Below are positions 27,090-61,362 of a stretch of DNA of 64,000 nucleotides, piece by piece (the first letter of the stretch is position 1; each line of letters starts with the position of its first letter). Source of the DNA: Octopus sinensis (lineage: Eukaryota). The notes beneath the pieces were generated by a model. It had not been told where the DNA came from and did no database searches. It was given only the letters and a program-made list of their open reading frames with translations. The stretch is from positions 79,794,001 through 79,858,000 of the forward strand of contig NC_043006.1 in assembly GCF_006345805.1 (NCBI RefSeq), in the 5' to 3' direction. The position numbers and the translations under genes are program-made.

Positions 27090-28682
27090 TTGTAAGGTGA
27101 GTGCTAAAGAGAAAGAGGGGAAGGGAGAGGGAAGAAGAAGGAAAGAATTTTTTTGGTCTGCTGGACAGAATATTGACTCCAAGGGGTTTCTAAGAATTTC
27201 AGCTTTGACCACTTCACAGTGTCACTGAGTGTGTGGTGGCGGGGAGGTAGGCCATAATATTGACTCCAAGGGGGTTCTAAGAATTTTAGCTTTGACCACT
27301 TTTTTGTAGTGGATGTCTGTTGTGACGATGGAGTTGTGTATTTTGATGTTGATGTCGAGGAAAGGAAGTTCGTTGTGGCTGGTATCTATTGTGAAGTTGA
27401 TAGATGGGTGCAACGTATTGAGGATGTTGTGGAATGTTCGTCGGTATTCTTCTGATCTGTTCCAAAAGATGAAGCAGTCATCGAGGTAGCGTTTCCACTT
27501 TTTTTCGATGTCTTCTCTGAAGTCGTGTTCGAAGACTTTCCCTATTTCATCATATAGTTTGTTCTCCAGGAAACCCATCACCAGGTTGGCATATGAAGGT
27601 GCGAATTTTTTACCCATAGCCGTGCCTTTTATCTGTCGGTATGTCTTGTTGTTGAATGAGAATGTATTTTTTTCGAGTATTAGTTGGGTGGCTTGGGTGA
27701 TAAAGTTTGTCTTGAAGCGTTCGTCTATAAGTTCTCTGTATTTTCTATCGATTGTTTTATAGCTTCTAGACCTAGGGTGTGTGGTATGTTTGTGTATAGA
27801 TTTGTGACATCAAAGCTTGCAAGTATGGTGTTTTTCGGGACTGTATTTGGAATGTGTGTGAGGAAGTCTATGTCATCCCTTATGTAGCTTGGTATCTGTG
27901 GGCATAAAGGTTTGAGGAGTATATCTATGAAGTGGCTTAGTTGTTGTGTTGGTGTCTGGGGTCCTGCCACTATTGGTCTCATTGTGAGGTCTGCAGGCCT
28001 TTGTATTCTTATATAGTGGTTCCTCTGTTCCTTTATGGCTCTCTGTATTTCAGAGCTTTTATGAATTTTAGGTAATCCATAAAAATTGCTTTCTTTGGTT
28101 CGTGAATTGCATAGATAGTCTTTCTCCTTATCTGTAAAGGAGTCCTGGTATTTATTGACTAAAGTTCTAATTTTTCTTATTGTTGCTTTCTCCAGTGGTG
28201 TTGGTTCCTCTTTATAGCATGCCTGGTTGTTCAGTAACTCGAGTATCTTTTCTTTGTAGTAATCTGTATCCATAATTACTATTGCTCCACCTTTGTCAGC
28301 TTCTTTTATAATGATTGACTTGTCATTTTTCAGTTTTTGTAAGGCTTGTTTTTCTCCTCTGCGGAGATTCTGTTTGCATTTGTGTGTGTGGAGAGGGAAT
28401 TTGGATATTGTCTCTATGTATGCGTCAAGGTGTTTGTTACTTCCCTTGTAAGGGGTGAAATGGGATTTTTTCTTATGATTGAGTTATCTTCTGTTTCCTT
28501 ATTTTCAAAGAATTCCATAAGGCGGAGGTGGCGGCTGAAGTTGTCTATATCAGTTTTTAGTTCTATGAGGTTTGGAGTGGGTGTAGGTGTAAATTTGAAG
28601 CCTTTTAGTAGTAATATATAAATAAATATCTGTAAATATAAACCATCCGATCTTCTGATTACCTCATTTCTTCTAATATATA
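26785..28682 (-). mobile_element. Penelope-like element, frameshifted RT, with inverted terminal repeats
   Basis: ADKGGAVV, FYGLPKIHK, RPIV, SFDVTNLYTNIP, GTAMG..FAPSYANL, RYLDD, LPFLD. About 65-bp inverted repeats at 26785-26850 and 28613-28682. Confidence 0.9.
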
Positions 28683-28707
28683 ATATCTGTACATCATCTC
28701 CAAACCT

Positions 28708-28749
<42 letters not shown>

Positions 28750-29236
28750 GAGGCACCAGAAATTAGTACGATTAGTACGGTATTATCCATAGAATTTCAA
28801 AATAAGGTGATTAGAATCAAAATACGCAACAAGGATATCCAGTACGATCGTTTCACGCAACTCCATTTAATTGAACAATGCAACCATTACATCAATTTAA
28901 ATGCAGAGCACAAAGACATAGAATTTAATTAAATTAAAACAGATGGTCACATTAGTATAATTTTACCTAAAATCTCCAAGAGGTTAAGGAGATAGACAAA
29001 GAACATGGTACCTTCACTTCTATTTAGAAGCTTCTATTAGAGTTCAAATTCCTCCAAGGTCGACTTGGCCTTTCATCCTTTCAGGGTAGATAAAATAAGT
29101 ACAAGCTGAGAACTGGGGTCGAAGTAATCAACACAGCTCCACCTCCGAAATTACTGGCCTCCTGCCAAAGTTTGAAACCGATATTTGAATTTAGAGCTTA
29201 GGTAAGCGGAACAAAAAGATCGTAAGGCATTCTGTC

Positions 29237-35655: not shown

Positions 35656-38193
<2,538 letters not shown>

Positions 38194-38979: not shown

Positions 38980-39518
38980 TAGATATAAATAAATAGATAG
39001 ATAGATAGATAGATAGAGAGAGTGAGAGTGATAGAAGGAGTTATCACTTGAATGTAACTTTATTGCCTATGAAGGAATGATAAGCAAAGCAGGCCTCCGC
39101 AGGATTTAAATACATCGCAGACAATCGAAACAAATACAGCAAGGTGTTCTCTCTGACGCTCTAACGACTCTGCCAATTCGCTGCTCTAGTAGACATGAGA
39201 TAAAAGGTATTCCAGCCTTGGCCAGCCCATCCTCTTAGAGATATCTAGAAAACTAAATTATCCAATGTCTTGTGCTTAGGTTAAGAAATGATCTGAGGGA
39301 GGGTGATTTTGCTGCTATGTCTGGTAGGTCGAGCGACCACGTAAAGGTTCCCTATCGGCTAACATTTGAAAGTATAGAGTAGCGTAGTTTGTTGACTTAA
39401 AGATTGATAATGAGTAACTATTCATATTGTATTCGGAATCATTGAACAATACTACTTTTTTGTTGCGAAAAAAATTATTATAATAGAAAGCAGAATTAAT
39501 AATCCTTAAGAATAAACA

Positions 39519-41438
39519 ATGAAGTGGGTTTCATTTATCCTCTACTTTTTTATAAATGCTAATTTATGTTTGCAAAGTAAGTATTATGATGCAACATCAG
39601 TTTCTTGCTCAGAATGGGAGCTATATCACAAATGTTCGTGTCAACCTGAATGTCACTTGTTTAAGAATTGTTGTTTAGACCTAGCTAATCGTAATGTTTC
39701 TCATAGTCAAAATATTTCTGCACAAAGTTGTACGAAACTGAAAATTGGATATTACATTGCCCTTGACAAATGCCTTCCTAGTTACCCTATTAAAGAATAT
39801 GTGAGCAGATGTGAAAATTCTGTTGATGAAGATTATATCTTGAAAGTACCAGCTTTCGGGAAAGTAGACAAAAGATTGTACAAGAACTTATTCTGTGCTT
39901 TGTGCAACGATCAAGAATACATCTTGGGCAAATCGATTTATGAATGCGATGTGAATGATATTACATATCAGCAACTTTCAAGGTACCTTTCAAATGGTAC
40001 ATGTACCTTTTATTCATTTGATGTCCCAGATATTACATTTATTAATAATCTACATGAATGCTTATACGATATTTCGAATTGTTCTATAAAAGAGCGACAT
40101 GAAAATAGATCGGAGTTATGTGAAACAAATTCTATTTCACTGGCATCTTCAAATAAGTACCGACACTGTGCTTTATGCAGTGCCTTAAACACTACATATT
40201 TTAATTCAGGTCGCAAAACGGTTGAAAGAACCTATCCATTGACTATAATATTCGACCACAGCAGTAATATATTACAATACATAAATGCTATTCAAGAGAG
40301 TGTCGACACGAATAGAAGCGCAGGAAGGCATGAAACAATTCTCTGTAACAGTGATTTATTATTTGATGTTTATCAAAACCAGTGTCGTTCAGTTTTCTTC
40401 TATTCACTCATGAATTGTATTGCAGTGAGACTAAGTGATGATGAATATTACCTCAATGATGAAGGTCTGCTTTATTTGAATAAAACTCAACGACTACTGA
40501 ACAGAACAGAATTCAGCCAGGACACTCAAGGCATAAGTATCTGCATAGATAAGGACTTCGGTGCAATATCAAAATATGCTATATCTGAGAGTTATATTAC
40601 ATTTATAGGTCTTACTATTTCTGTTCCTGCTCTACTAATAACAATTGTAACTTATCTCTGTATACCTGAACTACGTACTTTACCAGGTAAATTCGTAATC
40701 AGTCTTCTGTCATCGCTGTTGTTGGCAGAGGTTTTGTTTCTTATTTCTAGATATGTACCTCCGTATACTATTCAATGTATTTTAACAGCTGTTTTGATGC
40801 ATTATTCTTTCTTAGCATCGTTCTTCTGGATGAATGTCATATCGTTTGATGCCTGCTGCACTTTCTCAGGATTCATGCAATTTCATATTTCTAATCAGGG
40901 TAATAAAAAACTTTTACCGTATTCTATATATGCATGGATCAGTCCACTTATAATTGTAACTATGTCACTCCTACTTGAGTATATACCAGAAAACAAAGCA
41001 ATTTCGCCAGCATATGGCAAGGGTATATGTTGGATTACAAATGGAAAGTGTTTATTATTGGTGTTTGGAATTCCAGTGATAATACTGTTAATACTTAATA
41101 TTTTAGCCTTTATTTTTATTTCAAGAGGCCTCCGTTTAGAAATGAAGCGTTCTGCAAAATATTTAATAAGTTACCATAATATTCACTTCCAAATTTTCTT
41201 CAAGCTCAGTCTTGTTATGGGTTTAACATGGATCTTGGGATTCCTGTATACATTCACAAAAATCAGTGAATTTTCTCTCCTTTTCTGTATCTGTAATTCA
41301 TTTTTGGGATTATTTGTTTGTTTTTCTTTTCTTTCCACAAGAATAATAGCTAAAAAATGCCTGCAGTTTGGGAATTTCTCGAACATTTCTACTTTTTACT
41401 GTACATCACCATCAGCATCTGAAAAAAATATCCAATAA
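39519..41438 (+). CDS. Methuselah-like (class B type) 7TM GPCR, single coding exon, 639 aa, SMB-like/Cys-rich ectodomain (G1)
   Basis: Signal peptide; CSCQPECHLFKNCC (somatomedin-B-like); YKNLFCALCN; 7TM motifs LRTLPGK, HYSFLASFFWMNVISFD, YAWISP, PAYGKGICWI, KLSLVMGLTWILG. No GPS motif seen. Confidence 0.9.
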   Translation: MKWVSFILYFFINANLCLQSKYYDATSVSCSEWELYHKCSCQPECHLFKNCCLDLANRNVSHSQNISAQSCTKLKIGYYIALDKCLPSYPIKEYVSRCENSVDEDYILKVPAFGKVDKRLYKNLFCALCNDQEYILGKSIYECDVNDITYQQLSRYLSNGTCTFYSFDVPDITFINNLHECLYDISNCSIKERHENRSELCETNSISLASSNKYRHCALCSALNTTYFNSGRKTVERTYPLTIIFDHSSNILQYINAIQESVDTNRSAGRHETILCNSDLLFDVYQNQCRSVFFYSLMNCIAVRLSDDEYYLNDEGLLYLNKTQRLLNRTEFSQDTQGISICIDKDFGAISKYAISESYITFIGLTISVPALLITIVTYLCIPELRTLPGKFVISLLSSLLLAEVLFLISRYVPPYTIQCILTAVLMHYSFLASFFWMNVISFDACCTFSGFMQFHISNQGNKKLLPYSIYAWISPLIIVTMSLLLEYIPENKAISPAYGKGICWITNGKCLLLVFGIPVIILLILNILAFIFISRGLRLEMKRSAKYLISYHNIHFQIFFKLSLVMGLTWILGFLYTFTKISEFSLLFCICNSFLGLFVCFSFLSTRIIAKKCLQFGNFSNISTFYCTSPSASEKNIQ

Positions 41439-48139: not shown

Positions 48140-50447
48140 GATTTGCGTGTTCCAGTCCCAGTTATTTGTGTATAAAGTGTTCCCATTATTATGAAACACC
48201 TTAAGGTGATCTGGCAGAATCGTTAGTACGCCGGACAAAATGTTTAGAAGCATTTTTTCGAGTTCAAATTCCGTTGAGGTCGACTTTGTCTTTCATGCTT
48301 ACGGAGTCTATAAATAAGTACCAGTTAACTGCTGGGTTCGATGTAATCAACTAGCTCTACTTAACTCCAAATTTCAGGTCCCGTGTCTATGGTAGAAAAG
48401 TTTATTGAGACACCCTGCATAAAACTACAAATGAGCATGACATGAAAGGTAAGCAACCTCGTCATGTAATGTAATAAAACTTGCAGTTAATGGGACCGAA
48501 CATATAAAACAACTCTAATAATAAAAGCAGACATATTTAACAATACATGTAATATTGACTTCAAATTTTGGGACAAGGCAAACAAGTTCGGGAGAGGGGG
48601 TATGTCGATTATATCGACCTCAGTGCTCAACTGTCACTTATTTTATCAGCCCCAAAAAGACGAAAGGCAAAGTCGACCTCGGCGGAATATGAACTCAGAA
48701 CGTATAAACGGACGAAATGCCGCTAAGCATTTTGCTCGGAGTGCTAATGATTCTTCCAACTCGTCGCCTTAGGATACACATTAATAATCCCTTCTACTAT
48801 AGGCACAGGGCCTGATATTTGTAGGAGAAATTTGAGAGGAGGGATTAGTCGATTATATCGACCCCAGTACTCAGCTGGTACTTATTTTATCAACCCCGAA
48901 AGGATGAAAAGACAAAGTCGACCTCTGCGGAATCTGAACTCAGAATGCATAGTCGGACGAAATGCCGCTAAGCATTTTACCCGGAGTGCTAACGCTTCTT
49001 CCAGCTCGTCGTCTAAGGATACGCATTAATAATGATAATGTAGCGTAACTAATTGCATGAAGTATAATTCCATAAAATATAATATTTATATAATACAGTC
49101 TGCCATGAAATTTAAGCATTCAATGTAGGCGCTGAAGAATTAGAAATAGTAGTGTGATATAACACGTCAAGTAAGGTGCAAAGTTCTTTGATGTTGGAAG
49201 GAAAGAAAAGTAAGTAGTCATGCGAAAGTGACCCGCATGATATTGAGACATAATACATATAATTATTTAGAATAGTAGTAGTAATTAACGAATGGAATAT
49301 GATTGCTCATGATATCGAAGCAGTCATGAATTGTACAAATTCCCATCACGTAATTTATCATGCATCTAAACGTAACATATGCACAATGGGAACGTTTGAA
49401 ATAGGTTTAGTTTAGTTATAGTTTGAAAAATCATGGTTCAATACAAGACAGAAGATATTCTAAGTTAGTTCGTTCCCAAATGAAACCAATTTCTTAAATA
49501 GAGGATGTAAAACCCTATTGTTTTTTTTACTTCCCTCCTGTCAAATTTATTTTAAGCAGAATGTTTACAGAAAAGTTGGATATTCATCACGCATCGGCTA
49601 TTTTACTTTTCTCATTCTCATTTTCCAAACAAGAAAAATTTTGTCAATACACATGTTCAAAATTTGTCTTGCAAACATTGTAGTTTGACAACAACGAGGC
49701 AGTTGACTCCAGCAGTTCAGCTGTCTTTTATTTCATTTCAGTTCAAATTTACCTTGAGGACTCATACAAGAATATTGGACATTCCATTATGTACGTCAAG
49801 TTCACTGTACTCGTTCTGTCATGTTTCCTAGATAACAAAAATTCTTGGCGATGCAGACGACATTTAGTCTCACTGGATTCTGCTATAAGTATTACATGTG
49901 ATGTGAAAAGAATGGTTTCATGACAACAAGCCAATGCTTGAGAATGTACGTGTCAGCCACATAGATGAATTTTTCTGAACGAGATCTATGATAAAAGTGG
50001 TCGAAGATGTATTTATCCAGAACATGAAAAGTATTTGAAAAATTATAGATATTCAGCATTATCTAATTGTAGAAATGTTATTAATCCCCAAGAGAAGATC
50101 AAAGTACTGAAGTCGATTTAAAAATCGTTGACAATAGATACATTCTAAAAAAGCTTGATGGAGAGGGTGACAATCTGAGATTGGTGAAATTGTGTAGTGA
50201 GAGGAAACTCTGCTTCAGTTTCTAATGCGAAAGCTCGTTGAGGGATATCAGAAATGTCATCACAATCTGCATTTTATTATAATTCTTAACGTTTATATCA
50301 TTATCATAAACGTAAAGAATTCTGAAATACAATGCAGTAAGTGGTGTCTGAGACTTTTACGGAGTAGTTTATAGAATCTATTATTACAATAGGTTGTGTA
50401 CTGTGATAGAATGTCTGATGTTTAGAGTATTCCTGGAGAAATTCCAA

Positions 50448-52406
50448 TTAATTTAGTGACGTTTCATGTTGAATATTGGTCGAGATTGTTTCAGTAATCG
50501 TCGAGAGATCAGCGTTTGAGGAATCGATATATTTTCGTATTTTAAGAAACATATGTTGAAAACTGCGGCAGACGATCTTTGTTAAGAGAAATGACAAAGA
50601 AATGAGTAAACCGACGAAAGAGTTTAAGATGCAAAATAGTAGAGAAAATTCGTCAATCTTCGTAAACGCATAAAGGAATCCGAATATCCACGTTAAACCC
50701 ATGATGAAGCTTAATTTTATGTAAATGAAGAACACCTTCTTGTTTCGTTTTGATAAATATTTTGAAGAAAGTTTGCAGGCCAAATATAATTCTCTAATAG
50801 TGATGCTATACGCGATAATATTGAGGCATAATATAATGATAACGGGGATTGCCATGAACCAGAGCAAACTGTTTACATTTGTAATCCAGCAATTACCAAT
50901 TCCATATTCTGGAGAAAGTCCATGATTTCCAGGTGTGTACTCGAATATTAGTGACACTGTTACTATTAGAAGTGGACAGATCCAAGCATATAAGCAATAT
51001 AATACAAGTTTCTTGGTATCATTTTCTGATCTCCGGAATTGTGTAAGCCTTGAGAAAGTGTGCCAGGCATCAAAAGACATGACATTCATCCAGAAGAAAG
51101 TCGCTAAAAATGCATAATGCATGACAACAGCTAAAGATTTACACAGCACTGTAGATGTAGTAATTTGTGATGAGATAAGAAACAGAAGCTCAGCTACAAA
51201 CAGTGCTGATGAAAGACTAATGAGCAATTTACCTGGTAAGGTACGGAGATCAGGTATACAGAGATAGACTATAATAGTGATTGCTAGAGCTGGGACAGAG
51301 ATTGCTAGTCCTACTAATGTGGTATAGCTCTCAATTTCGGAATATTTTGATATTCCATTGTTATCATTCTTTACACAGATACTTAAACCATCTTCATCAA
51401 TACTGAATTCTGATTGATTGAGCCAAAGTTGGGTAATATTTAAATAGAGAAAACCATCACTAGTGATATGATGTTCAGAGTCCTTCAATCTGGTCGCTGT
51501 ACAATTTAAGATGGGGTGATAAAAATTCTTGCGACAACGCATTGTGTTTTTATCGTAATTGGTATATTTTGGACAGAATGGCAATTTCGTTTCAATTACA
51601 GTACCGTCTTTCACTTCTTTAATGATTAAATATTTGGCATTATAATTAAAAATGATAGTTAAGGAAGGTAAGCTTGTAAAACCAAAATCATTGTTGTTAG
51701 TATTATTGCAACATATAATGCCTTGATCAGTATAGATATTATCTAATGTACATTGGGCCTTTCCTCTAAGGTTCTTACTTGCTAAATTTTGACAGTGATG
51801 TTCCAATGTTTCATTTAATATAAGAGGCGAGCATTTACGAACACTTGGAATGCAAGGAACCAGATACGGCTTTAAATTATCAGGAGGAGCGTTCTGCTTG
51901 GGACATTTACCATTTTCAATAATATTCATTATATTGGCAGGGTTTTTATTTACTGTATTATCGCAGTCATAAACTATCTCCCATAATATATATTTTTCCG
52001 AGTGGCACAGAGCACAATATCGGTTCCTGTAGAGTCTTTTACTTGTTTCACCGAACACAGGCATATTGTCCGGGCTATTGTTGTTTGTAGGATATTCACA
52101 TCCGCTCACATGACTTATATCACTGTGATTTGATGGACAGTGATCAAAGATATAATATGTTTTGTCCTGAACAAGGCTGCAACTATAATATATTGATGGA
52201 TCGAAATATTCGGACTCAACAGTTTTCCGTTGATCTTCATTACAGCAGCATCTATTATATATATGACAGTGTTGTGAAATAGAGCAAAATTCACAATCCG
52301 TCGTACGTAAACAATTTAGGACAGAATTTGATGTTGGAATGATATTATTCATAAATATAGTGATAAGAAATAAAGTAGAAAAGTAATATTTTAAGATGAT
52401 TTCCAT
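50448..52406 (-). CDS. Methuselah-like 7TM GPCR, 652 aa from the first ATG (G2)
   Basis: Intact ORF, MEIILK start at 52406 followed by a hydrophobic signal segment. Same ectodomain and 7TM motifs as G1. AATAAA at 50273-50278. Confidence 0.9.
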   Translation of the reverse strand: MEIILKYYFSTLFLITIFMNNIIPTSNSVLNCLRTTDCEFCSISQHCHIYNRCCCNEDQRKTVESEYFDPSIYYSCSLVQDKTYYIFDHCPSNHSDISHVSGCEYPTNNNSPDNMPVFGETSKRLYRNRYCALCHSEKYILWEIVYDCDNTVNKNPANIMNIIENGKCPKQNAPPDNLKPYLVPCIPSVRKCSPLILNETLEHHCQNLASKNLRGKAQCTLDNIYTDQGIICCNNTNNNDFGFTSLPSLTIIFNYNAKYLIIKEVKDGTVIETKLPFCPKYTNYDKNTMRCRKNFYHPILNCTATRLKDSEHHITSDGFLYLNITQLWLNQSEFSIDEDGLSICVKNDNNGISKYSEIESYTTLVGLAISVPALAITIIVYLCIPDLRTLPGKLLISLSSALFVAELLFLISSQITTSTVLCKSLAVVMHYAFLATFFWMNVMSFDAWHTFSRLTQFRRSENDTKKLVLYCLYAWICPLLIVTVSLIFEYTPGNHGLSPEYGIGNCWITNVNSLLWFMAIPVIIILCLNIIAYSITIRELYLACKLSSKYLSKRNKKVFFIYIKLSFIMGLTWIFGFLYAFTKIDEFSLLFCILNSFVGLLISLSFLLTKIVCRSFQHMFLKIRKYIDSSNADLSTITETISTNIQHETSLN

Positions 52407-52619
52407 TCGGAACTGAAAATGTTGAATCAGCAAGCTTGAAGAAATCCAGGATTTATACTGATATCAATTTGTTGATGAATTTTACTACAATGGAGTAATT
52501 TGAATAGATCAAAATTGAAAATGCTTCCAATGTATTTATGTCTTTGAATATAAGCAAACAAGAATGAGCTATAGCTTAAAGGTAAGTTGTTTTGGGTTAT
52601 AGAGTTTTCGTAGTTATAC

Positions 52620-52645
52620 CTGGAAAAGAAGAAATAAAGATATTT
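52620..52645 (-). promoter_or_regulatory. Conserved 3' splice acceptor upstream of the G2 CDS (counterparts at 58474 for G3 and 61044 for G4)
   Basis: tctttatttcttcttttccag| in G2 and G3, catttcttctattgcag| in G4; each about 215 nt before the ATG. Confidence 0.6.
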
Positions 52646-53663
52646 ACTAATAGTATTCAATAATGAAACGATGCAAGGAAATGCTTATGACAATTTGATA
52701 CTATTATTTCCTTACATTTTGAACTCTTATTATTTTGTAATACTTTTATTTGTTTCAGCCATCAGAGTGCAACTCTACTGGGACACGGCCCTGAAGGGTT
52801 TAATGGAACAAATCGATCACAGTAATGTTTCTATATTTGGTACTTTTCCTATCGGCATCTTACTGATGAAACTCTAAGTCGCGAGGACTAAAAGAAACTA
52901 ATAGCAAATGTGAAACTGTGTTGGAACAAAAGAAACACGGGCACCTGCAGCCACCCAAACACCCATACTGAGACATAGTGTCCTTGAGAAAATTTTCTTA
53001 TAATAGGAGAAGAAATGTTACTATTGACGTAATATAATCAGATTTGTAATGTGACGCATCTTGCAATTTCACCAGTACACAAAATATAACAAGCCATTTA
53101 TCGTATCTAGTGGTGTATTGAAAGAAGGCAGTTAAATTGAATAATACAACATATATCATTTAAGTAGTTATAACCGGTTATATAATATATGATGTGATGT
53201 GAGCAGTCATGTGATATACGCACTGTTTCTGTATATATTTCAAATAAAGCAACCTTGAGTGTCATATTTGGAAAACAGCACAAAACACAGAGGTCGCAGA
53301 AAAAATTTCCATGAGAACCAAATTCGTTTTCTACAGTTTTTGTGTAATAAATGAAAATGTATTGTTCACCGCCTCTACACGAAATGTTTCAGAGAGAAGA
53401 AATGATTAATGCGAACGTCTGAAATTTGTTTTGTAAATATGTAGTTTGAAAACATCGTAGTTAAATATAATACAAGATCACTTGAAACTATTAATGTCTC
53501 GAACAAAGACACAGAATCCCTCTCAGACACAGAGGAACATCTCCGTTGCCTTCTTTTATTTCCTTTTAAAAATCGTTGACAAAAGATATATGTAGAAAAG
53601 GCCCGCTGGAGTAGATGAGAAACTGAGATTGACGGAACTGTGTTTCAATTCCTAATATGAAAG

Positions 53664-53804
53664 CCAGGCATTAAGTGACATGACATTCACTCAGAAGAAA
53701 GTAGCTAAGAACGAATAATGCATCATAATAGCTAAAGATTTACACAGCACTGTAAATGTAGTGACTTGCGATGAAATAAGAAAGAGAAGCTCAGCTAAAA
53801 ACAG
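53664..53804 (-). pseudogene. Relic of an additional GPCR paralogue (TM2-TM3 only)
   Basis: Translates LFLAELLFLISSQVTTFTVLCKSLAIMMHYSFLATFF*VNVMSLNAW (conserved W changed to TGA). It is fused to a G4-type 3' flank at 53568-53663. Confidence 0.85.
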
Positions 53805-54095
53805 GCGCACTTACTGGACGAAAACCAACCAACAGCAATTATGAAACTGTGTTGGAACAGATACAAACAGAGACACCTGCAGCTATCCACACACACTCAT
53901 AGCACTCATAGTGGGATATATGTCATGCTTTAGAAAGTTTTATTATAACAGGACATTAAATGTTACTATTCACGTATAATCAGATTGGTAATGTGATGCA
54001 TCTTTCAATGTCACCAGTAAGCAAAATATAACAAGCCATTTATTGTAACTAGTGGTGCCTTGAAAGAAGGCACGAAAATGGAATAATATAACATA

Positions 54096-55223
54096 CTAGC
54101 AAACACACCCGTCCCTTGGATGGTTTAAGCTGCTATGGTGGTATTTTTTTCATTAGATAATTGAACTAGCGAGAATGTTTATGAGTAGTACGGCAATCTA
54201 TGTTTCCGATTAACCTAGGAACGGAAAATCGAATTGCAGTCTGGTTATTGTGGAGGTCGTTGCACTTTAATAATCATAGAACATGAAAGTTTGAGAGCTA
54301 TGCAAAGCAGAGCTACTGAAGTGTTACGGGAGTAGATTACGAATAATGACAACCAAATATAGTTGTTTTACACGAAAGCGAAATTTGTTGTCATAAACAG
54401 CCACATAAATGGTGTAAGGGAATTGAAAGAAAACGGTGAAACTTCCCCTCTGCGAGTTTATTTTTTTCAACAGCAAAGTAGCTATTTTTTCGGAGAGATA
54501 AGTTGACAAAAGCCCCTTTATTCTGTTTTCCCGTATAGCCTGCGCATAATATAACAGCGAATGCTGTATAGAGTTAAATTGGTACGGAGTTTTCTGAAAG
54601 ATACGTATAGCTTTCGCTAGTGTAAGCAAAACTCTTATTTAAAGGTTGATTATTTGGGGATGAATCATAAGTAATTGTTTAAAAGAGGCTAAAATGACAA
54701 TGCTAAAGCATATTTGAAACAACGGACAATAGTCGAAATATCATAATGGATGGGCAAATAGGCACCCTTAAAGTGAAACAACGCATTGGTAGGTAAACAA
54801 ACGTCTCAACAAATAGAAGGGAGGCAAGGGAACATCATCTTTCAAGTAACTCAGAATAAGTAAAGGTAAGCTTGCCAAAGTTTAATGCAGTTTAACTATG
54901 GAGATTAAGATTGCTTGATATTGGATATTCATCGCTACAGTATTCCTAGTCAATTTAATCAACGTGGCAGGAGTACAGTCGAAATAAATAGACAAAATCC
55001 TTTCACTTCATAAAAAGATTAAAATGTATGGAAGATCCTACATACAAAAACTATGTCCATTTAGGTCTATTTACGCGGAAGCTCCGGGAAAAATGTTTAG
55101 TGCATGACCATCCTTGTGACATAAGCAACGTGTGTGTAAAGTTTGGTGAAAATCGGTTGAGAATTGTGGAAATGTATGCGTTAGTCATTATACACACATA
55201 TGCTGTGATTTATATATATCAGA
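54096..55223 (-). mobile_element. Non-autonomous Helitron
   Basis: 5'-TC...CTAG-3' termini, GC hairpin at 54109-54123 near the 3' end, inserted between A and T with no TSD. Removing it restores ACATATATCAT, seen uninterrupted in the paralogous block at 53149-53159. Confidence 0.85.
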
Positions 55224-56319
55224 TATCATCTAAATAAATACAACTAGTTATATAATATAAGACGTGATGTGAACATTCATGTCATATATATACTGTTCCT
55301 CTATATATTTATTACAAGTAACACGATCTTGGGGGACATATCTGAAAAGCTACAATCTGCAACACAAGAAACTTTGGGAACAGAATAACATTTCCATGTG
55401 TATCAAATTTCGATTTCTATAGTGTCTGTGAGAGAAGGGAAAATGTATTGCTCACAGAATGTTTCAGAGAGAACAAGTATTTAATGTGAATGCTTGAAAT
55501 ATGTTTTGTAAATATGTAGTTTGAAATCAAAATAGTTAAACATAATACAAGAGCAACTAAAACAACTTATGCCCGGAACAAAGACATGGAAACCAACCCT
55601 CTCAGACATAGAGGAACAACTTCGCAGCCTTCATTTATTTCCTTTCAAATTTACCTCGAGAAAGATTCTTGCAAAAATGTTGGATATTCCATTAGGTACG
55701 GCAAATTCACTCTACTCGTTCTGTCACTTTCTCTAGATAACAAAAGTCTTGCCGATGCAGACGACTTCCAGCTTCATTTTTTCTTCCTATATGTATTTCA
55801 TGTGATGTGAAGAGAATGGTTTCATGACGACAGACCACGGTTTGAGAATGTATCTGTTAGGGAAATTGGTGAATTCTATTCCGATCGAGATGTATGGTGA
55901 GAGTGAGGGTTAAGCATCCGAAAAATTATAGGAATTTAGTATTATCCAGTTGTGGAAATATTTATTAGTCCTTGAGAGAAAAAATAAAAATACTTAAGTC
56001 GGTTTAAAAATCATTGACCCTAGATATTATCGTAAACATTTGTGAAATTGTGTAGCCAGAGGAAACACTGTTTGAATTTCTAATATGAAAGCCCGTTGAA
56101 GGCTATGAGTAACGTCATCACAATTTTTATTTTATTATAAATCTTAACGTTTATGCATATCATTGTCTCATTATAAACGTAAAGAAGTGTGATATACAAT
56201 GCAGCAAGTGGTGCGACGTTAGAGTCTTTTACAATATAGTTTAAAGAATGCAGCCCTACTACAGGTTATATATTGTGGTAGAATGTATGTTGTTTAGAAT
56301 ATTTCCGGAGAAATATCAA

Positions 56320-58260
56320 TTATTGTAGTGATGTTTCATGTAGGTTATTTGTCGAGATTGTTTTAGGAATCATTGAAATATCAGAGTTTGAGAAATCGAC
56401 ATATTTTCGTATTTCAAGAGACATACGTTGAAAAGTTCGGCAGACGATCTTTGTTAAGAGAAATGACAAAGAAATGAGTAAACCGACAAAAGAGTTTAAA
56501 ATGCAAAATAGTAGAGAAAATTCGTCAATCTTCGTAAACGTATAAAGGAATCCGAGCATCCATGTTAAACCCATGATGAAGCTTAATTTTACGTAAATAA
56601 AGAACACTTTTTTGTTTCGTTTTGATAAATATTTTGAAGAACATTTGCTGGTCAGGTACAACTCTCTAATAGTGAAGCTGTACGCTATAATATTAATGCA
56701 TAAAATAATGATAACGGGGATTGCCAAGAACCAAAGCAAACTGTTCACGTTTGTAATCCAGCAAATACCAATTCCATATTCTGGAGAAAGTCCATGATTT
56801 CCAGGTGTGTACTCGAATATTAGTGACACTGTTACTATTAGCAGTGGACAGACCCAAGCATATAAGGAATATAATACAAGTTTCTTGGTATCATTTTCTG
56901 AACTCCGAAGTTGTGTAAGCCTTGAGAAAGTGTTCCAGGCATCAAATGACATGACATTCGTCCAGAAGAAAGTCGCTAAAAACGCATAATGCATGACAAC
57001 AGCTAAAGATTTACACAGCACTGTAGATGTAGTAATTTGTGATGAGATAAGAAACAGAAGCTCAGCTACAAACAGTGCTGATAAAAGACTAATGAGTAGT
57101 TTACCTGGTAAGGTACGGAGATCAGGTATACAGAGATAGACTATAATAGTGATTGCTAGAGCTGGGACAGAGATTGCTAGTCCTACTAATGTGATATAGC
57201 TCTCAATTTCGGAATATTTTGATATTCCATTGTTATCATTCTTTACACAGATACTTAAACCATCTTCATCAATACTGAATTCTGATTGATTGAGCCAAAG
57301 TTGGGTAATATTTAAATAGAGAAGACCATCACTAGTGATATGATATTCAGAGTCCTTCAATCTGGTCGCTGTACAATTTAAGATGGGGTGATAAAAATTC
57401 TTGCGACAACGCATTGTGTTTTTATCGTAATTGGTGTATTTTGGACAAAATGGCAATTTCGTTATAGTTCCAGTACCATCTTTAATGATTAAATATTTGG
57501 CATTATAATTAAAAATGATAGTTAACGAAGACCGTAGTTTAGCAGAACTCAAAGAATTATTGCAACATTTGATGTTGAGTTTAATATATTTCATTGACAA
57601 TGTACACTTTATCTCTGTAATATTATGTGTATATTTAGAAAGCTGACAGTGATGTCCTAATGATTTATTTAATATATGCAGCGAGCATTTAGTAACACTG
57701 GGTATGCAAGGGACTAGATAAGGTTCTAAATTATCAGGTGGAGCGTTCCGTTTGGGACATTTACCATTTTCAATAATATTCATTATATTGGCAGGGTTTT
57801 TATTTGCTGTATTATTGCAGTCATAAACTATCTCCCATAATATATATTTTTCCGAGTGGCACAGAGCACAATATCGGTTCCTGTAGAGTCTTTTACTTGT
57901 TTCACCGAACACAGGCATATTGTCCGGGCTATCGTTGTTTGTAGGATATTCACATCCGTTCACATGACTTATATCACTGTGATTTGATGGACAGCGATCA
58001 AAGATATAATATGTTTTGTTCTGAACAAGGCTGCAACTATAATATATTGATGGATCGAAATATTCGGACTCAACAGTTTTCCGTTGATCTTCATTACAGC
58101 AGCATCTATTATATATATGACAGTGTTGTGAAATAGAGCAAAATTCACAATCCGTCGTACGTAAACAATTTAGGACAGAATTTGATGTTGGAATGATATC
58201 ATTCATAAATATAGTGATAAGAAATAAAGTAGAAAAGTAATATTTTAAGATGATTTCCAT
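56320..58260 (-). CDS. Methuselah-like 7TM GPCR, 646 aa (G3)
   Basis: Intact ORF, close paralogue of G2 and G4. AATAAA at 56131-56136. Confidence 0.88.
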   Translation of the reverse strand: MEIILKYYFSTLFLITIFMNDIIPTSNSVLNCLRTTDCEFCSISQHCHIYNRCCCNEDQRKTVESEYFDPSIYYSCSLVQNKTYYIFDRCPSNHSDISHVNGCEYPTNNDSPDNMPVFGETSKRLYRNRYCALCHSEKYILWEIVYDCNNTANKNPANIMNIIENGKCPKRNAPPDNLEPYLVPCIPSVTKCSLHILNKSLGHHCQLSKYTHNITEIKCTLSMKYIKLNIKCCNNSLSSAKLRSSLTIIFNYNAKYLIIKDGTGTITKLPFCPKYTNYDKNTMRCRKNFYHPILNCTATRLKDSEYHITSDGLLYLNITQLWLNQSEFSIDEDGLSICVKNDNNGISKYSEIESYITLVGLAISVPALAITIIVYLCIPDLRTLPGKLLISLLSALFVAELLFLISSQITTSTVLCKSLAVVMHYAFLATFFWTNVMSFDAWNTFSRLTQLRSSENDTKKLVLYSLYAWVCPLLIVTVSLIFEYTPGNHGLSPEYGIGICWITNVNSLLWFLAIPVIIILCINIIAYSFTIRELYLTSKCSSKYLSKRNKKVFFIYVKLSFIMGLTWMLGFLYTFTKIDEFSLLFCILNSFVGLLISLSFLLTKIVCRTFQRMSLEIRKYVDFSNSDISMIPKTISTNNLHETSLQ

Positions 58261-58888
58261 TCGGAACTGAAAATGTTGAATCAGCAAGCTTGAAGAAATC
58301 CAGGATTTATACTGATATCAATTTGTTGATGAATTTTACTACAATGGAGTAATTTGAATAGATCAAAATTGAAAATGCTTCCAATGTATTTATGTCTTTG
58401 AATATAAGCAAACAAGAATGAGCTATAGCTTAAAGGTAAGTTGTTTTGGGTTATAGAGTTTTCGTAGTTATACCTGGAAAAGAAGAAATAAAGATATTTA
58501 CTAATAGTATTCAATAATGAAACGATGCAAGGAAATGCTCACGACAATTTGATAATATTATTTCTTTACGGTTAAAAGCTCGTTGACAATAAATATAATC
58601 ACAAAATGCCCGCTGGAGTAGATGAGAAGCTGAGATTGATGCAACTGTTTTTCAGTTTCTAATATGAAAGCCTGTTGAAGGATATCTGTGACGCCCTCAC
58701 AATCTGCATTTTATTATAATTCTTAACGTTTATATCATTATCATAAAAGTAAAGTAGTCTGATACAAAATGCAGCATGTGTTGTGATGTTACAGGCCTTA
58801 CAGTGTAGTTTATAGAATGCAGCGTTACTAAAGGTTGTGTACTGTGGTAGAATATCTGTTGTCTAGAAAATTTCCGGAGAAATTTCTA

Positions 58889-60826
58889 TTATTTTAGTGA
58901 TGTATCATGTTCGGTGTAGGTCGACATTGTTTCAGTAATCGTCGAAACATCGGCGTTTGAGAAATCGACATATTTTCGTATTTTAATAAACATATGTTGA
59001 AAACTGCGGCAGACGATCTTTCTTAAGAGAAATGACAAAGAAATGAGTAAACCAACGAAAGAGTTTAAGATGCAAAATAGTAGAGAAAATTCGTCAATCT
59101 TCGTAAACGTATAAAGGAATCCGAGCATCCATGTTAAACCCATGATGAAGCTTAATTTTATGTAAATGAAGAACACCTTCTTGTTTCGTTTTGATAAATA
59201 TTTTGAAGAAAGTTTGCTGAACAAATACAACTCTCTGATAGTGATACTGTACGCTATAATATTCAAACATAAAATAATGATAACAGGGATTGCTAAGAAC
59301 CACAATAAACTGTTCACGTTTGTAATCCAGCAAATACCAATTCCATATTCTGGAGAAAATCCACGATTTCCAGGTGTGTACTCAAATATCAGTGACACTG
59401 TTACTATTAGAAGTGGACAGATCCAAGCATATAAGGAATATAATACAAGTTTCTTGGTATCATTTTCTGAACTCCGAAGTTGTGTAAGCCTTGAGAAAGT
59501 GTTCCAGGCATCAAATGACATGACATTCGTCCAGAAGAATGTCGCTAAAAACGCATAATGCATTACAACAGCTGAAGATTTACACAGCACTGTGGATGTA
59601 GTGACTTGTGATGAGATAAGAAAGAGAAGCTCAGCTACAAACAGTGCCGATGAAAGACTAATGAGTAGTTTACCTGGTAAGGTACGGAGATCAGGTATAC
59701 AGAGATAGACTATAATAGTGATTGCCAGAGCTGGGACAGAGATTGCTAGTCCCACTAATGTGATATAGGTTTCAATTTCGGAATATTTTGATATTTCATT
59801 GTTATCATTCTTTACACAGATACTTAAACCATCTTCATCAATACTGAATTCTGATTGATTGAGCCAAAGTTGGGTAATATTTAAATATAGAAGACCATCA
59901 CTAGTAATATGATATTCAGAGGCTTTCAATCTGGTCGCTGTACAATTTAAGATGGGGTGATAAAAATTCTTGCGACAACGCATTGTGTTTTTATCGTAAT
60001 TGGTGTATTTTGGACAGAATGGCAATTTCGTTTCAATTTCAGTTCCGTCTATTTTTTCTTTAATAGTTAAATATTTGATATTATAATTAAAAATGATAGT
60101 TAATGGAAATCCCTTTCGACTCGATGATGTACTGGTTGATACACTGCAACATAAGATGTTTCGATCGGTATAATCATTAGACGACGTACATCGTGGCTTT
60201 TCTAAAGTTGGACATTGATGTTCCAATGTTTCATTTAATATTTGAGGCGAGCATTTACTAACACTGGAAATGCAAGGCATCAGATAAGGTTTTAAATTAT
60301 CCGGAGGAGCTTTGCGTTTGGAACATTTACCATTTTCAATCATATTCATTAAATCGGCACGATTTATATTTACTGTATTATCACAGTCATAAACAATATC
60401 CCATAATATATATTTCTCTGTGTGACACAGAGCACAATATCGGTTCATATAGAGTCTTTTACTTGTTTCACCGAACACAGGAATATTGTCTGGACTATCA
60501 TTGTTTTTAGGATATTCACATCTGGTCACATGACTTATATCACTGTGATTTGATGGACAGCGGTCAAAGATATAATATGTTTTGTCCTGAACAAGGCTGC
60601 AACTATAATATATTGATGGATCGAAATATTCGGACTCAACAGTTTTCCGTTGATCTTCATTACAACAGCATCTGTTGTACATATGACATTGCTTTGCAAA
60701 TGAGCAAAATTCACAATCCGTAGTATTGAAACATTTTAAGTTAGAGTTTGAAGTTAGAACGACGTGATTCATAAATGCAAGAATAAAAAATAAAATAGAA
60801 AAGTTATGATTGAAGACGATTTCCAT
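58889..60826 (-). CDS. Methuselah-like 7TM GPCR, 645 aa (G4)
   Basis: Intact ORF, MEIVFN start at 60826. AATAAA at 58710-58715. Confidence 0.9.
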   Translation of the reverse strand: MEIVFNHNFSILFFILAFMNHVVLTSNSNLKCFNTTDCEFCSFAKQCHMYNRCCCNEDQRKTVESEYFDPSIYYSCSLVQDKTYYIFDRCPSNHSDISHVTRCEYPKNNDSPDNIPVFGETSKRLYMNRYCALCHTEKYILWDIVYDCDNTVNINRADLMNMIENGKCSKRKAPPDNLKPYLMPCISSVSKCSPQILNETLEHQCPTLEKPRCTSSNDYTDRNILCCSVSTSTSSSRKGFPLTIIFNYNIKYLTIKEKIDGTEIETKLPFCPKYTNYDKNTMRCRKNFYHPILNCTATRLKASEYHITSDGLLYLNITQLWLNQSEFSIDEDGLSICVKNDNNEISKYSEIETYITLVGLAISVPALAITIIVYLCIPDLRTLPGKLLISLSSALFVAELLFLISSQVTTSTVLCKSSAVVMHYAFLATFFWTNVMSFDAWNTFSRLTQLRSSENDTKKLVLYSLYAWICPLLIVTVSLIFEYTPGNRGFSPEYGIGICWITNVNSLLWFLAIPVIIILCLNIIAYSITIRELYLFSKLSSKYLSKRNKKVFFIYIKLSFIMGLTWMLGFLYTFTKIDEFSLLFCILNSFVGLLISLSFLLRKIVCRSFQHMFIKIRKYVDFSNADVSTITETMSTYTEHDTSLK

Positions 60827-61362
60827 TTGAAACTGAAGATGTTGAAGCAGCAAGACTGAAGAAATTCAAGAGATATATTTGATATCTATTTGTTGATGAA
60901 TAGGTCAAAATTGAAAATGCTTCCAATACATTGAAGGCATAATAAGTCAGTTTTAAGTGTTTGAATGTAACCAAAATTCGGATCATAGAACAACGGTATG
61001 TTGACTTTGTATATGTATATATGCACTAGCTTTTGAAGTTGTACTGCAATAGAAGAAATGACGATATTTTACCCTCAGTAATTAGTAATGAATTTGCTTA
61101 AGCAAATGTGTATTACAATTTGGTGAGTGTAATATTTTTTTAAAGACATTTCATTAGTGTTTTTAAATTCATTTACTTGCATTAATCATTGCAATTCAGT
61201 CACTCTGGCGTACACCCTTGAACGGTTTTCTCTGTGTGTAACTAGTTATATTGTTCTTTTTTGACGAGTCGCCAATTTGTATGTAAACAAATCAACACAA
61301 GTTGTGAAATCGTGGAGGAGCAATCACACACGCACGTACGCACACACACACACATACACACA

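Follow-up and report, generated by a model that had tools for sequence, protein, structure and literature searches.

The locus described here raises the question why three neighbouring receptor genes of Octopus sinensis, which resemble each other closely over much of their length, each possess one extracellular segment of their own. The genes lie on the minus strand of a window of 64,000 nucleotides (contig NC_043006.1, positions 79,794,001–79,858,000) and are named G2 (50448..52406, within the open frame 50448–52463), G3 (56320..58260, open frame 56320–58317), and G4 (58889..60826, open frame 58889–60865). G2 is an intronless Methuselah-like class-B G protein-coupled receptor (GPCR) of 652 amino acids, counted from the first ATG, with a hydrophobic N-terminus followed by an ectodomain of 24 cysteines and then by the seven-transmembrane (7TM) domain. 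G3 and G4 are intact paralogues of 646 and 645 amino acids, and like G2 each consists of a single intact intronless frame. The private segments, called loops in the following, are found at 51663..51788 in G2, at 57526..57642 in G3, and at 60104..60211 in G4, all on the minus strand; these coordinates translate exactly as given in a preliminary description of this DNA, and the indels between the loops all keep the frame, as was stated there. We suggest, with a probability of about 0.55, that the private segment is a ligand-specificity part which is maintained by selection in epithelial receptors of sucker and skin.

The divergence of the loops is real. In the pairwise comparisons 29 of 40, 24 of 36, and 22 of 33 amino acids are different, as opposed to 2–4 of 81 in the block LPFC..YSE and 13–19 of 254 in the 7TM domain (50601..51326 on the minus strand in G2, PF00002), which is homogenised among the three genes. 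The stretch LPFCPK...ATRLK is identical in all of them. The residue-by-residue match outside the loop reported in the preliminary description is therefore confirmed for these parts, but the term near-constant scaffold is overstated, as the signal region of G4 differs from G2 and G3 at 21 of 46 residues and the C-tails differ among the three at 10–16 of 43. At the DNA level the loops are homologous (alignment z 4.0, 4.5, and 2.5 with 200 shuffles). When G2 and G3 are followed along the gene, only 9 differences in 719 nt are found in a tract on the minus strand that includes the upstream flank and the gene start (51996..52715), then ∼40% in the loop and 0–5 per 60 nt over the next 600 nt; the near-identical tract probably results from a recent conversion or unequal crossover. 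The odd one out among the three genes switches in runs along the alignment. In addition, the loops are more diverged than the non-coding 3′ flank (0.29–0.40 vs. 0.17–0.20; Fisher p 0.069, 0.0004, and 0.00002, a gap-tolerant alignment included), significantly so in two of the three pairs.

The comparison with a second species indicates how this pattern may have arisen. The closest protein to G2 in O. bimaculoides is A0A0L8GFJ7, which is identical to Ocbimv22034334m (P0002 in our set, in one 90% cluster with P0009) and has 82% identity with G2 in the ectodomain. In the loop the O. bimaculoides orthologue (counted in P0009) differs from G2 at 13 of 43 residues, from G3 at 30 of 40, and from G4 at 26 of 36. 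In module 1 of the ectodomain it is 18–21 residues per 100 away from all three genes, which differ mutually by only 4–10 per 100, and it also falls outside G2–G4 in the LPFC block. A tree of the 7TM domain unites G2, G3, and G4 (support 99/94) to the exclusion of the orthologue; a quick tree of the N-terminal region together with module 1 does not separate the order of the four. Thus, the paralogues group within the species in the scaffold and the orthologues group across the species at the divergence peak, a comparison for which one O. bimaculoides orthologue, that of G2, is available. As the orthologue goes with G2 in the loop and stays outside G2–G4 in the 7TM domain, gene conversion is the likely cause of the homogeneous scaffold, with the loop escaping it; a comparable mosaic would be expected from unequal crossover. 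Since the loop types are shared across species they probably predate the separation of the species, and homogenisation of the scaffold appears to have followed it. The same arrangement is known from the duplicated genes of the human red and green opsins, where the paralogues are closest in the converted regions and the orthologues at one peak, and a local peak of this kind is the expected trace of selection that acts against conversion (Fawcett and Innan 2011, PMC3924837). The opsin peak consists of two tuning residues that have been tested, whereas the peak of G2–G4 is a remodelled extracellular module of 40 residues with indels and a putative function.

Each of the genes would thus encode a receptor of the secretory pathway whose shared 7TM domain gives a common signal, and the private segment would set which outside ligand the receptor binds. 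Conversion would keep the shared scaffold uniform, and selection would remove those conversions that erase the private segment. Of these steps we infer the rejection of conversions by selection, the contact between segment and ligand, and the common signal of the 7TM domain.

The structure of the ectodomain gives a hint where the private segment comes from. In order, the ectodomain comprises a somatomedin-B (SMB)-like region (52179..52313 in G2, minus strand), module 1 (52005..52139, minus strand, a conserved C..C..RNxxCALC repeat under strong purifying selection across the family, omega 0.19), a linker, module 2, and a beta-rich C-terminal part. The two modules are repeats of common descent (hhalign probability 98.7). 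Two copies of the NxxCxxC motif occur in 103 of the 114 relatives in the alignment; in G2–G4 only one complete motif is left. In most paralogues of the cluster module 2 reads PMAL...NxxCAxCNG...C. In G2–G4 the PMAL hairpin and the second cysteine of the CxxC are lost and a cysteine is gained beside the last one; the SMB-like region has likewise lost one family cysteine and gained one (CCC in G2), so that with two positions lost and two gained the total of 24 is kept. The spacing of 13 residues between the first cysteine and the CC is found in G2, G3, G4, and the G2 orthologue, and likewise in paralogue L007. A hidden Markov model (HMM) of module 2 that was built without G1–G4 aligns to the segment-bearing stretch of G2–G4 with 11–17 bits, as opposed to 73 bits for an ordinary paralogue; the alignment of G4 is ambiguous, as the model matches its RNILC with the RNxxC motif. 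The divergent paralogue G1 (39519..41438, plus strand, open frame 39516–41438, 41–43% identity) still has the CxxC in module 2 and carries KYRHCALC in this segment. By these profile and alignment criteria the private segment derives from the second cysteine module by remodelling, which agrees with the earlier reading of it as a degenerate second copy. Its three versions are rich in Asn, Ser, and Thr and contain sequons: that of G2 comprises the remodelled module and its tail, that of G3 has a net charge of +6 across the 40 residues from the anchoring cysteine to LTIIF, and that of G4 is rich in Ser and Thr.

Selection is also indicated in the module-2 tail of those paralogues that have an intact module 2; the counterpart of this tail in G2–G4 is the last third of the loop. 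For the codon tests 23 of 33 long open reading frames (ORFs) were used; the five outside the cluster, G1–G4, and L032, in which the tail is missing, were excluded, as was L012 from the gapless tail test. The likelihood models were run with our own code and not with PAML; their branch proportions were taken unchanged from IQ-TREE, and the posteriors are plain ones. Plain M2a yielded twice the log-likelihood difference (2dl) of 98 with nine of twelve sites in the tail. With gamma-distributed rates in both models, M2a was preferred to M1a in eleven other paralogues (2dl 30.7, omega2 7.4) and all seven sites above 0.9 are in the tail; for all 23 paralogues 2dl was 19.9 (six of six sites in the tail), and with a tree from 98 local codons it was 13.6 (nine of nine). 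Simulations in which a neutral island had three- or fourfold depth reached at most 13.0 (12 runs) and 13.9 (8 runs), so none of the 20 exceeded 13.9. The background is strongly constrained in the RNxxCAxCNG motif (omega 0.08–0.11). In the pair L016/L024 the tail has 14 non-synonymous differences and one synonymous difference, and the aligned upstream flank differs by ∼3%. Between the orthologues, too, the loop changes at a higher rate than the remaining protein (13/43 vs. 82/609, p 0.006), also when set against the ectodomain alone (p 0.027).

The expression of the orthologues points to the body surface. According to the bulk proportions in supplement 2 of Ritschard et al. (2019, PMC6408891), which cover sucker, skin, and ten other tissues of O. 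bimaculoides (gill and haemocytes are outside the sampling), Ocbimv22034334m is found in sucker (0.46) and skin (0.54) and is zero in the ten other tissues. In the neighbour on the upstream side, whose position and length point to the G3 or G4 type, the proportions are 0.22 in sucker and 0.78 in skin, and in the next gene upstream 0.83 and 0.17; both are confined to sucker and skin. The gene at the position of G1 is mainly visceral, and among the 14 genes of the same group on that scaffold six peak in sucker or skin, four have their peak in axial nerve cord, and three elsewhere, one having no data. The preliminary description had proposed a ligand-recognition surface. The persistence of loop identity across species, the selected sites in the corresponding segment of the paralogues, and the sucker and skin record are consistent with this part of the proposal, and the loop omega of 0.5–0.6 in G2–G4, not different from 1, speaks against it.

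This last value is one of several results that weigh against our reading. In the loops of G2–G4 the proportions of synonymous and non-synonymous differences are 0.60–0.67 and 0.38–0.53, and the likelihood estimate of omega is 0.50–0.62 (p 0.25–0.63 against 1) at a dS of 1.5–3.2. A dN/dS at or below 1 with equally high synonymous divergence had been named in the preliminary description as the mark of a neutral linker, and taken literally this is what the codon test returned. At this saturation the test is without power and pairwise dN/dS is uninformative. Moreover, a selected island that resists conversion is expected to differ throughout (PMC3924837), which makes the silent divergence compatible with selection, although the extension to silent sites is our own. 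As to the paralogues, the tail taken alone has an omega of 1.4–1.7 (p 0.19–0.41), over all 23 paralogues its omega is 0.74–0.83, and its dS of 3.7–4.5 is high compared with 0.7–2.2 in other regions. The site test is anti-conservative, as five of the 20 null simulations passed 5.99, and these simulations modelled a deeper tree of the same topology. For the whole group Ritschard et al. report a homogeneous omega of 0.306, that is purifying selection, and no selected sites in the parts of PMC6408891 covered here. The AlphaFold confidence (predicted local distance difference test, pLDDT) of the G2 segment is below 50, a value that may simply be due to the segment being shared by four rows; in L007 module 2 reaches 89–95 and the coil tail 67–85. 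Finally, the expression proportions of the G2 orthologue reduce to 11/24 and 13/24, so low counts are probable, and paralogues that are nearly identical may attract each other's reads.

Many of these points would also be explained if the segment were a relaxed flexible linker left after the degeneration of module 2, in which indels and substitutions block heteroduplex formation so that it drifts out of conversion without having a function. A dN/dS not above 1 at saturated dS, the low pLDDT, the abundance of Asn, Ser, and Thr with sequons, the loss of a nearly universal family motif, and the raised dS over the tail throughout the family all agree with such a linker. Nevertheless, we regard it as a doubtful explanation: the flanks, which should be fully unconstrained, are less diverged than the loop, the 13-residue spacing and the cysteine count have been kept in all three genes and the orthologue, and in the homologous tail an omega above 1 at site level is supported more strongly than in any of the 20 neutral-island simulations.

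A contrast within the cluster bears on the same alternative. In a distal subclade of seven genes (L017, L022, L023, L025, and L027–L029, C10 80.36–80.59 Mb) the ectodomain is conserved, several broken copies lie nearby, and selection is indicated in the 7TM domain (2dl 16.0, omega2 3.4), with 25 sites above 0.9. As far as we can judge where the helices lie, 24 of these belong to TM1 or to the extracellular ends of TM2/first extracellular loop (ECL1)/TM3, ECL2, and TM6–TM7; this test, from which L019 was excluded, was run without a simulation control and some of its sites border gaps. The ectodomain of the distal clade of eight genes gave no selection signal (2dl 0.2), and neither did the 7TM domain of the clade of eleven genes (2dl 1.1). 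That two subclades vary different extracellular surfaces fits better with ligand-driven change than with one tolerant linker. The distal subclade may be a set of receptors for small ligands. Judged tentatively and with considerable doubt, the cluster might be an unrecognised GPCR repertoire for contact sensing in octopus arms with two modes of tuning, either the ectodomain module, which was rebuilt in G2–G4 on a homogenised core, or the extracellular pocket of the 7TM domain, with a G2 copy number that is perhaps variable.

If the segment is functional, its ligand could still be endogenous, for example, local peptides, matrix, or cell-surface proteins of arm skin and suckers, among which a paracrine or adhesion role would be subdivided. 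The ectodomain of Drosophila Methuselah (Mth) binds peptide ligands (PMC2288678), many other genes of the octopus group have their expression mainly in axial nerve cord (PMC6408891), the modelled 7TM domain is closest to adhesion GPCRs, and close species differ little in the loops. On the other side, the ectodomain differs from that of Mth, the GPS motif was not found, and in the family positive selection recurs and broken copies are numerous. Such a combination is more typical of environment-facing receptors. We consequently commit ourselves to an environment-facing cue, either a surface chemical or a microbial molecule, in preference to an endogenous peptide, and hold the latter to be quite improbable.

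The preliminary description had also considered an immune or self/non-self receptor family; in such an array the loop would be hypervariable between individuals. The loops turned out to be invariant or nearly so, in a comparison based on few runs and proteins and on contigs, which lose rare variants. The G2 loop is identical in the O. vulgaris protein P0159 and has no differences in runs X1, X6, and X11, the last of which spans the whole loop. For the G4 loop, O. vulgaris P0001 has the same sequence (0/36), and a contig of X6 over it shows 3 differences within 493 nt. Over the G3 loop, 6 differences within 610 nt are found in a contig of X9. Each of the runs X1, X6, and X17 contains only three loop types. 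In X17, which lacks coverage over 51672–51727, one of them is G2-like, with two listed differences that agree with the O. bimaculoides protein, one resembles the end of the G3 loop (11 of 30 nt different, compared by eye), and one matches none of the three; among the proteins searched no orthologue with a G3-type loop was found. The deviating loop end in X17, the skin expression of the orthologue (PMC6408891), and a hint of additional G2 copies in X1 would suit an immune array, but with loops unchanged in the few other animals the self/non-self version is unsupported, and we consider it very unlikely.

The hint of additional copies comes from the depths of the loop contigs, which are 241.5 for G2, 26.1 for G3, and 23.3 for G4 in run X1 and 58.2, 61.1, and 44.1 in run X6. 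Although contig depth is not copy number, this hints at several extra copies of G2 (unit 50180–52715) in the animal of X1; the assembly carries one.

Pfam 7tm_2 is present in each of G1–G4, and scores of 99.7–104.9 bits (cut-off 20.6) together with seven helices in the AlphaFold model place G2–G4 in class B (secretin/adhesion type). Ocbimv22034334m is listed in group 4, an octopus-specific expansion of Methuselah-like GPCRs, with a match to CDD cd15039 at 1e-81 (PMC6408891), and the spacing and orientation of the neighbours match the O. bimaculoides locus (30 kb upstream, 9 kb to the gene on the opposite strand). By orthology and synteny G2–G4 belong to this published expansion, in the same family and at the same locus. 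With Drosophila Methuselah they have in common a cysteine-rich ectodomain, a lineage-specific expansion, and probably a class-B3 Mth-like 7TM domain (PMC4768249, PMC2288678). In contrast, strict arthropod Mth receptors have the Methuselah_N ectodomain (PF06652) with ten cysteines, whereas in G2–G4 there is no PF06652 match, the 24 cysteines are arranged in another pattern, and the ectodomain consists of the SMB-like region and repeats that may be of the DUF8401 type. This agrees with Mth-like receptors outside the arthropods, which are described as having no Mth ectodomain and in some cases an SMB domain (PMC4768249, PMC2288678).

In our Pfam search at E ≤ 1 neither Methuselah_N nor GPS or GAIN matched G1–G4, and the SMB match was weak and confined to G1 (E 0.018). 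A GPS-like pattern was absent from the sequences scanned. Adhesion GPCRs, which likewise have a long ectodomain, resemble these receptors without the GPS/GAIN match being present in G1–G4: the model of a full-length paralogue gave only 7TM matches, with adhesion GPCRs as the best (Foldseek, VIA; Z about 26), and a search with the ectodomain profile found no related solved structure below E 0.5. The same profile has 2,964 representatives at E ≤ 0.001. PF28443 (called DUF8401 in Atlas rows with scores below 0.9) is precomputed for the protein of G3 and for the orthologues; against this listing, our local scan gave no PF28443 match in G1–G4.

Both the family and the evolutionary pattern are of kinds already known. 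In open-access full text the sole paper found on the octopus family is PMC6408891, and a description of the loop or the mosaic was not found there; within this literature the localisation, the stability of the loops across species, and the contrast of two surfaces appear to be undescribed. The parts of PMC6408891 covered here are without ectodomain modules, conversion mosaic, or private segment, all three of which the present analysis contains, and without the selection that region-resolved tests place in the module-2 tail of one subclade and on the extracellular 7TM face of another. The published picture of an orphan expansion under purifying selection is thereby extended to short extracellular segments as likely sites of specificity. 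Under active conversion, tests on the whole gene and trees of the 7TM domain give wrong dates for these genes and overlook local selection. G2, G3, and G4 are a natural experiment with nearly one receptor and three loops, so that loop swaps could test which GPCRs, if any, sense cues at sucker and skin.

The cluster extends well beyond the window. The search with the ectodomain yielded 39 matches and that with the 7TM domain 46, almost all of them in the interval 79.83–80.59 Mb of C10. In the stretches covered there are at least 33 ORFs of 550 codons or more, at least 28 of them within the cluster, accompanied by at least about a dozen broken or partial copies. Two recent copies, L004 and L006 (C10 80.007 and 80.056 Mb), have a common frame break which splits the SMB-like part from the rest. 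Five distant relatives with long ORFs (L041–L045; C3, C10 at 78.1 and 83.7 Mb, C9156) lie outside the cluster with 25–29% identity, and several of them share the same ectodomain plan.

Within the window G1 is the outermost member found on its side of the cluster; just upstream of it (36001–37790) are tandem duplicated blocks of 160–620 nt with 91–98% identity. Broken frames on the minus strand at 27222–28782 resemble, by eye, a retroelement with reverse transcriptase and endonuclease. Between G2 and G3 a relic of a further paralogue is preserved (53664..53804, minus strand, 141 nt covering TM2–TM3, 79% amino acid identity, in-frame stops), and old duplicated spacer blocks of 74–80% identity occur at 52885–54095 and at 49727–50140 and 55630–56026. 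Relic and blocks together show that at least one further unit once stood between G2 and G3. The duplicated spacer is interrupted by a high-copy repeat (54096..55213, separate from the receptor genes) with contig depths in the thousands. It has no long terminal inverted repeat, and its minus-strand ends (TC...CTAG) appear to resemble those of a non-autonomous Helitron.

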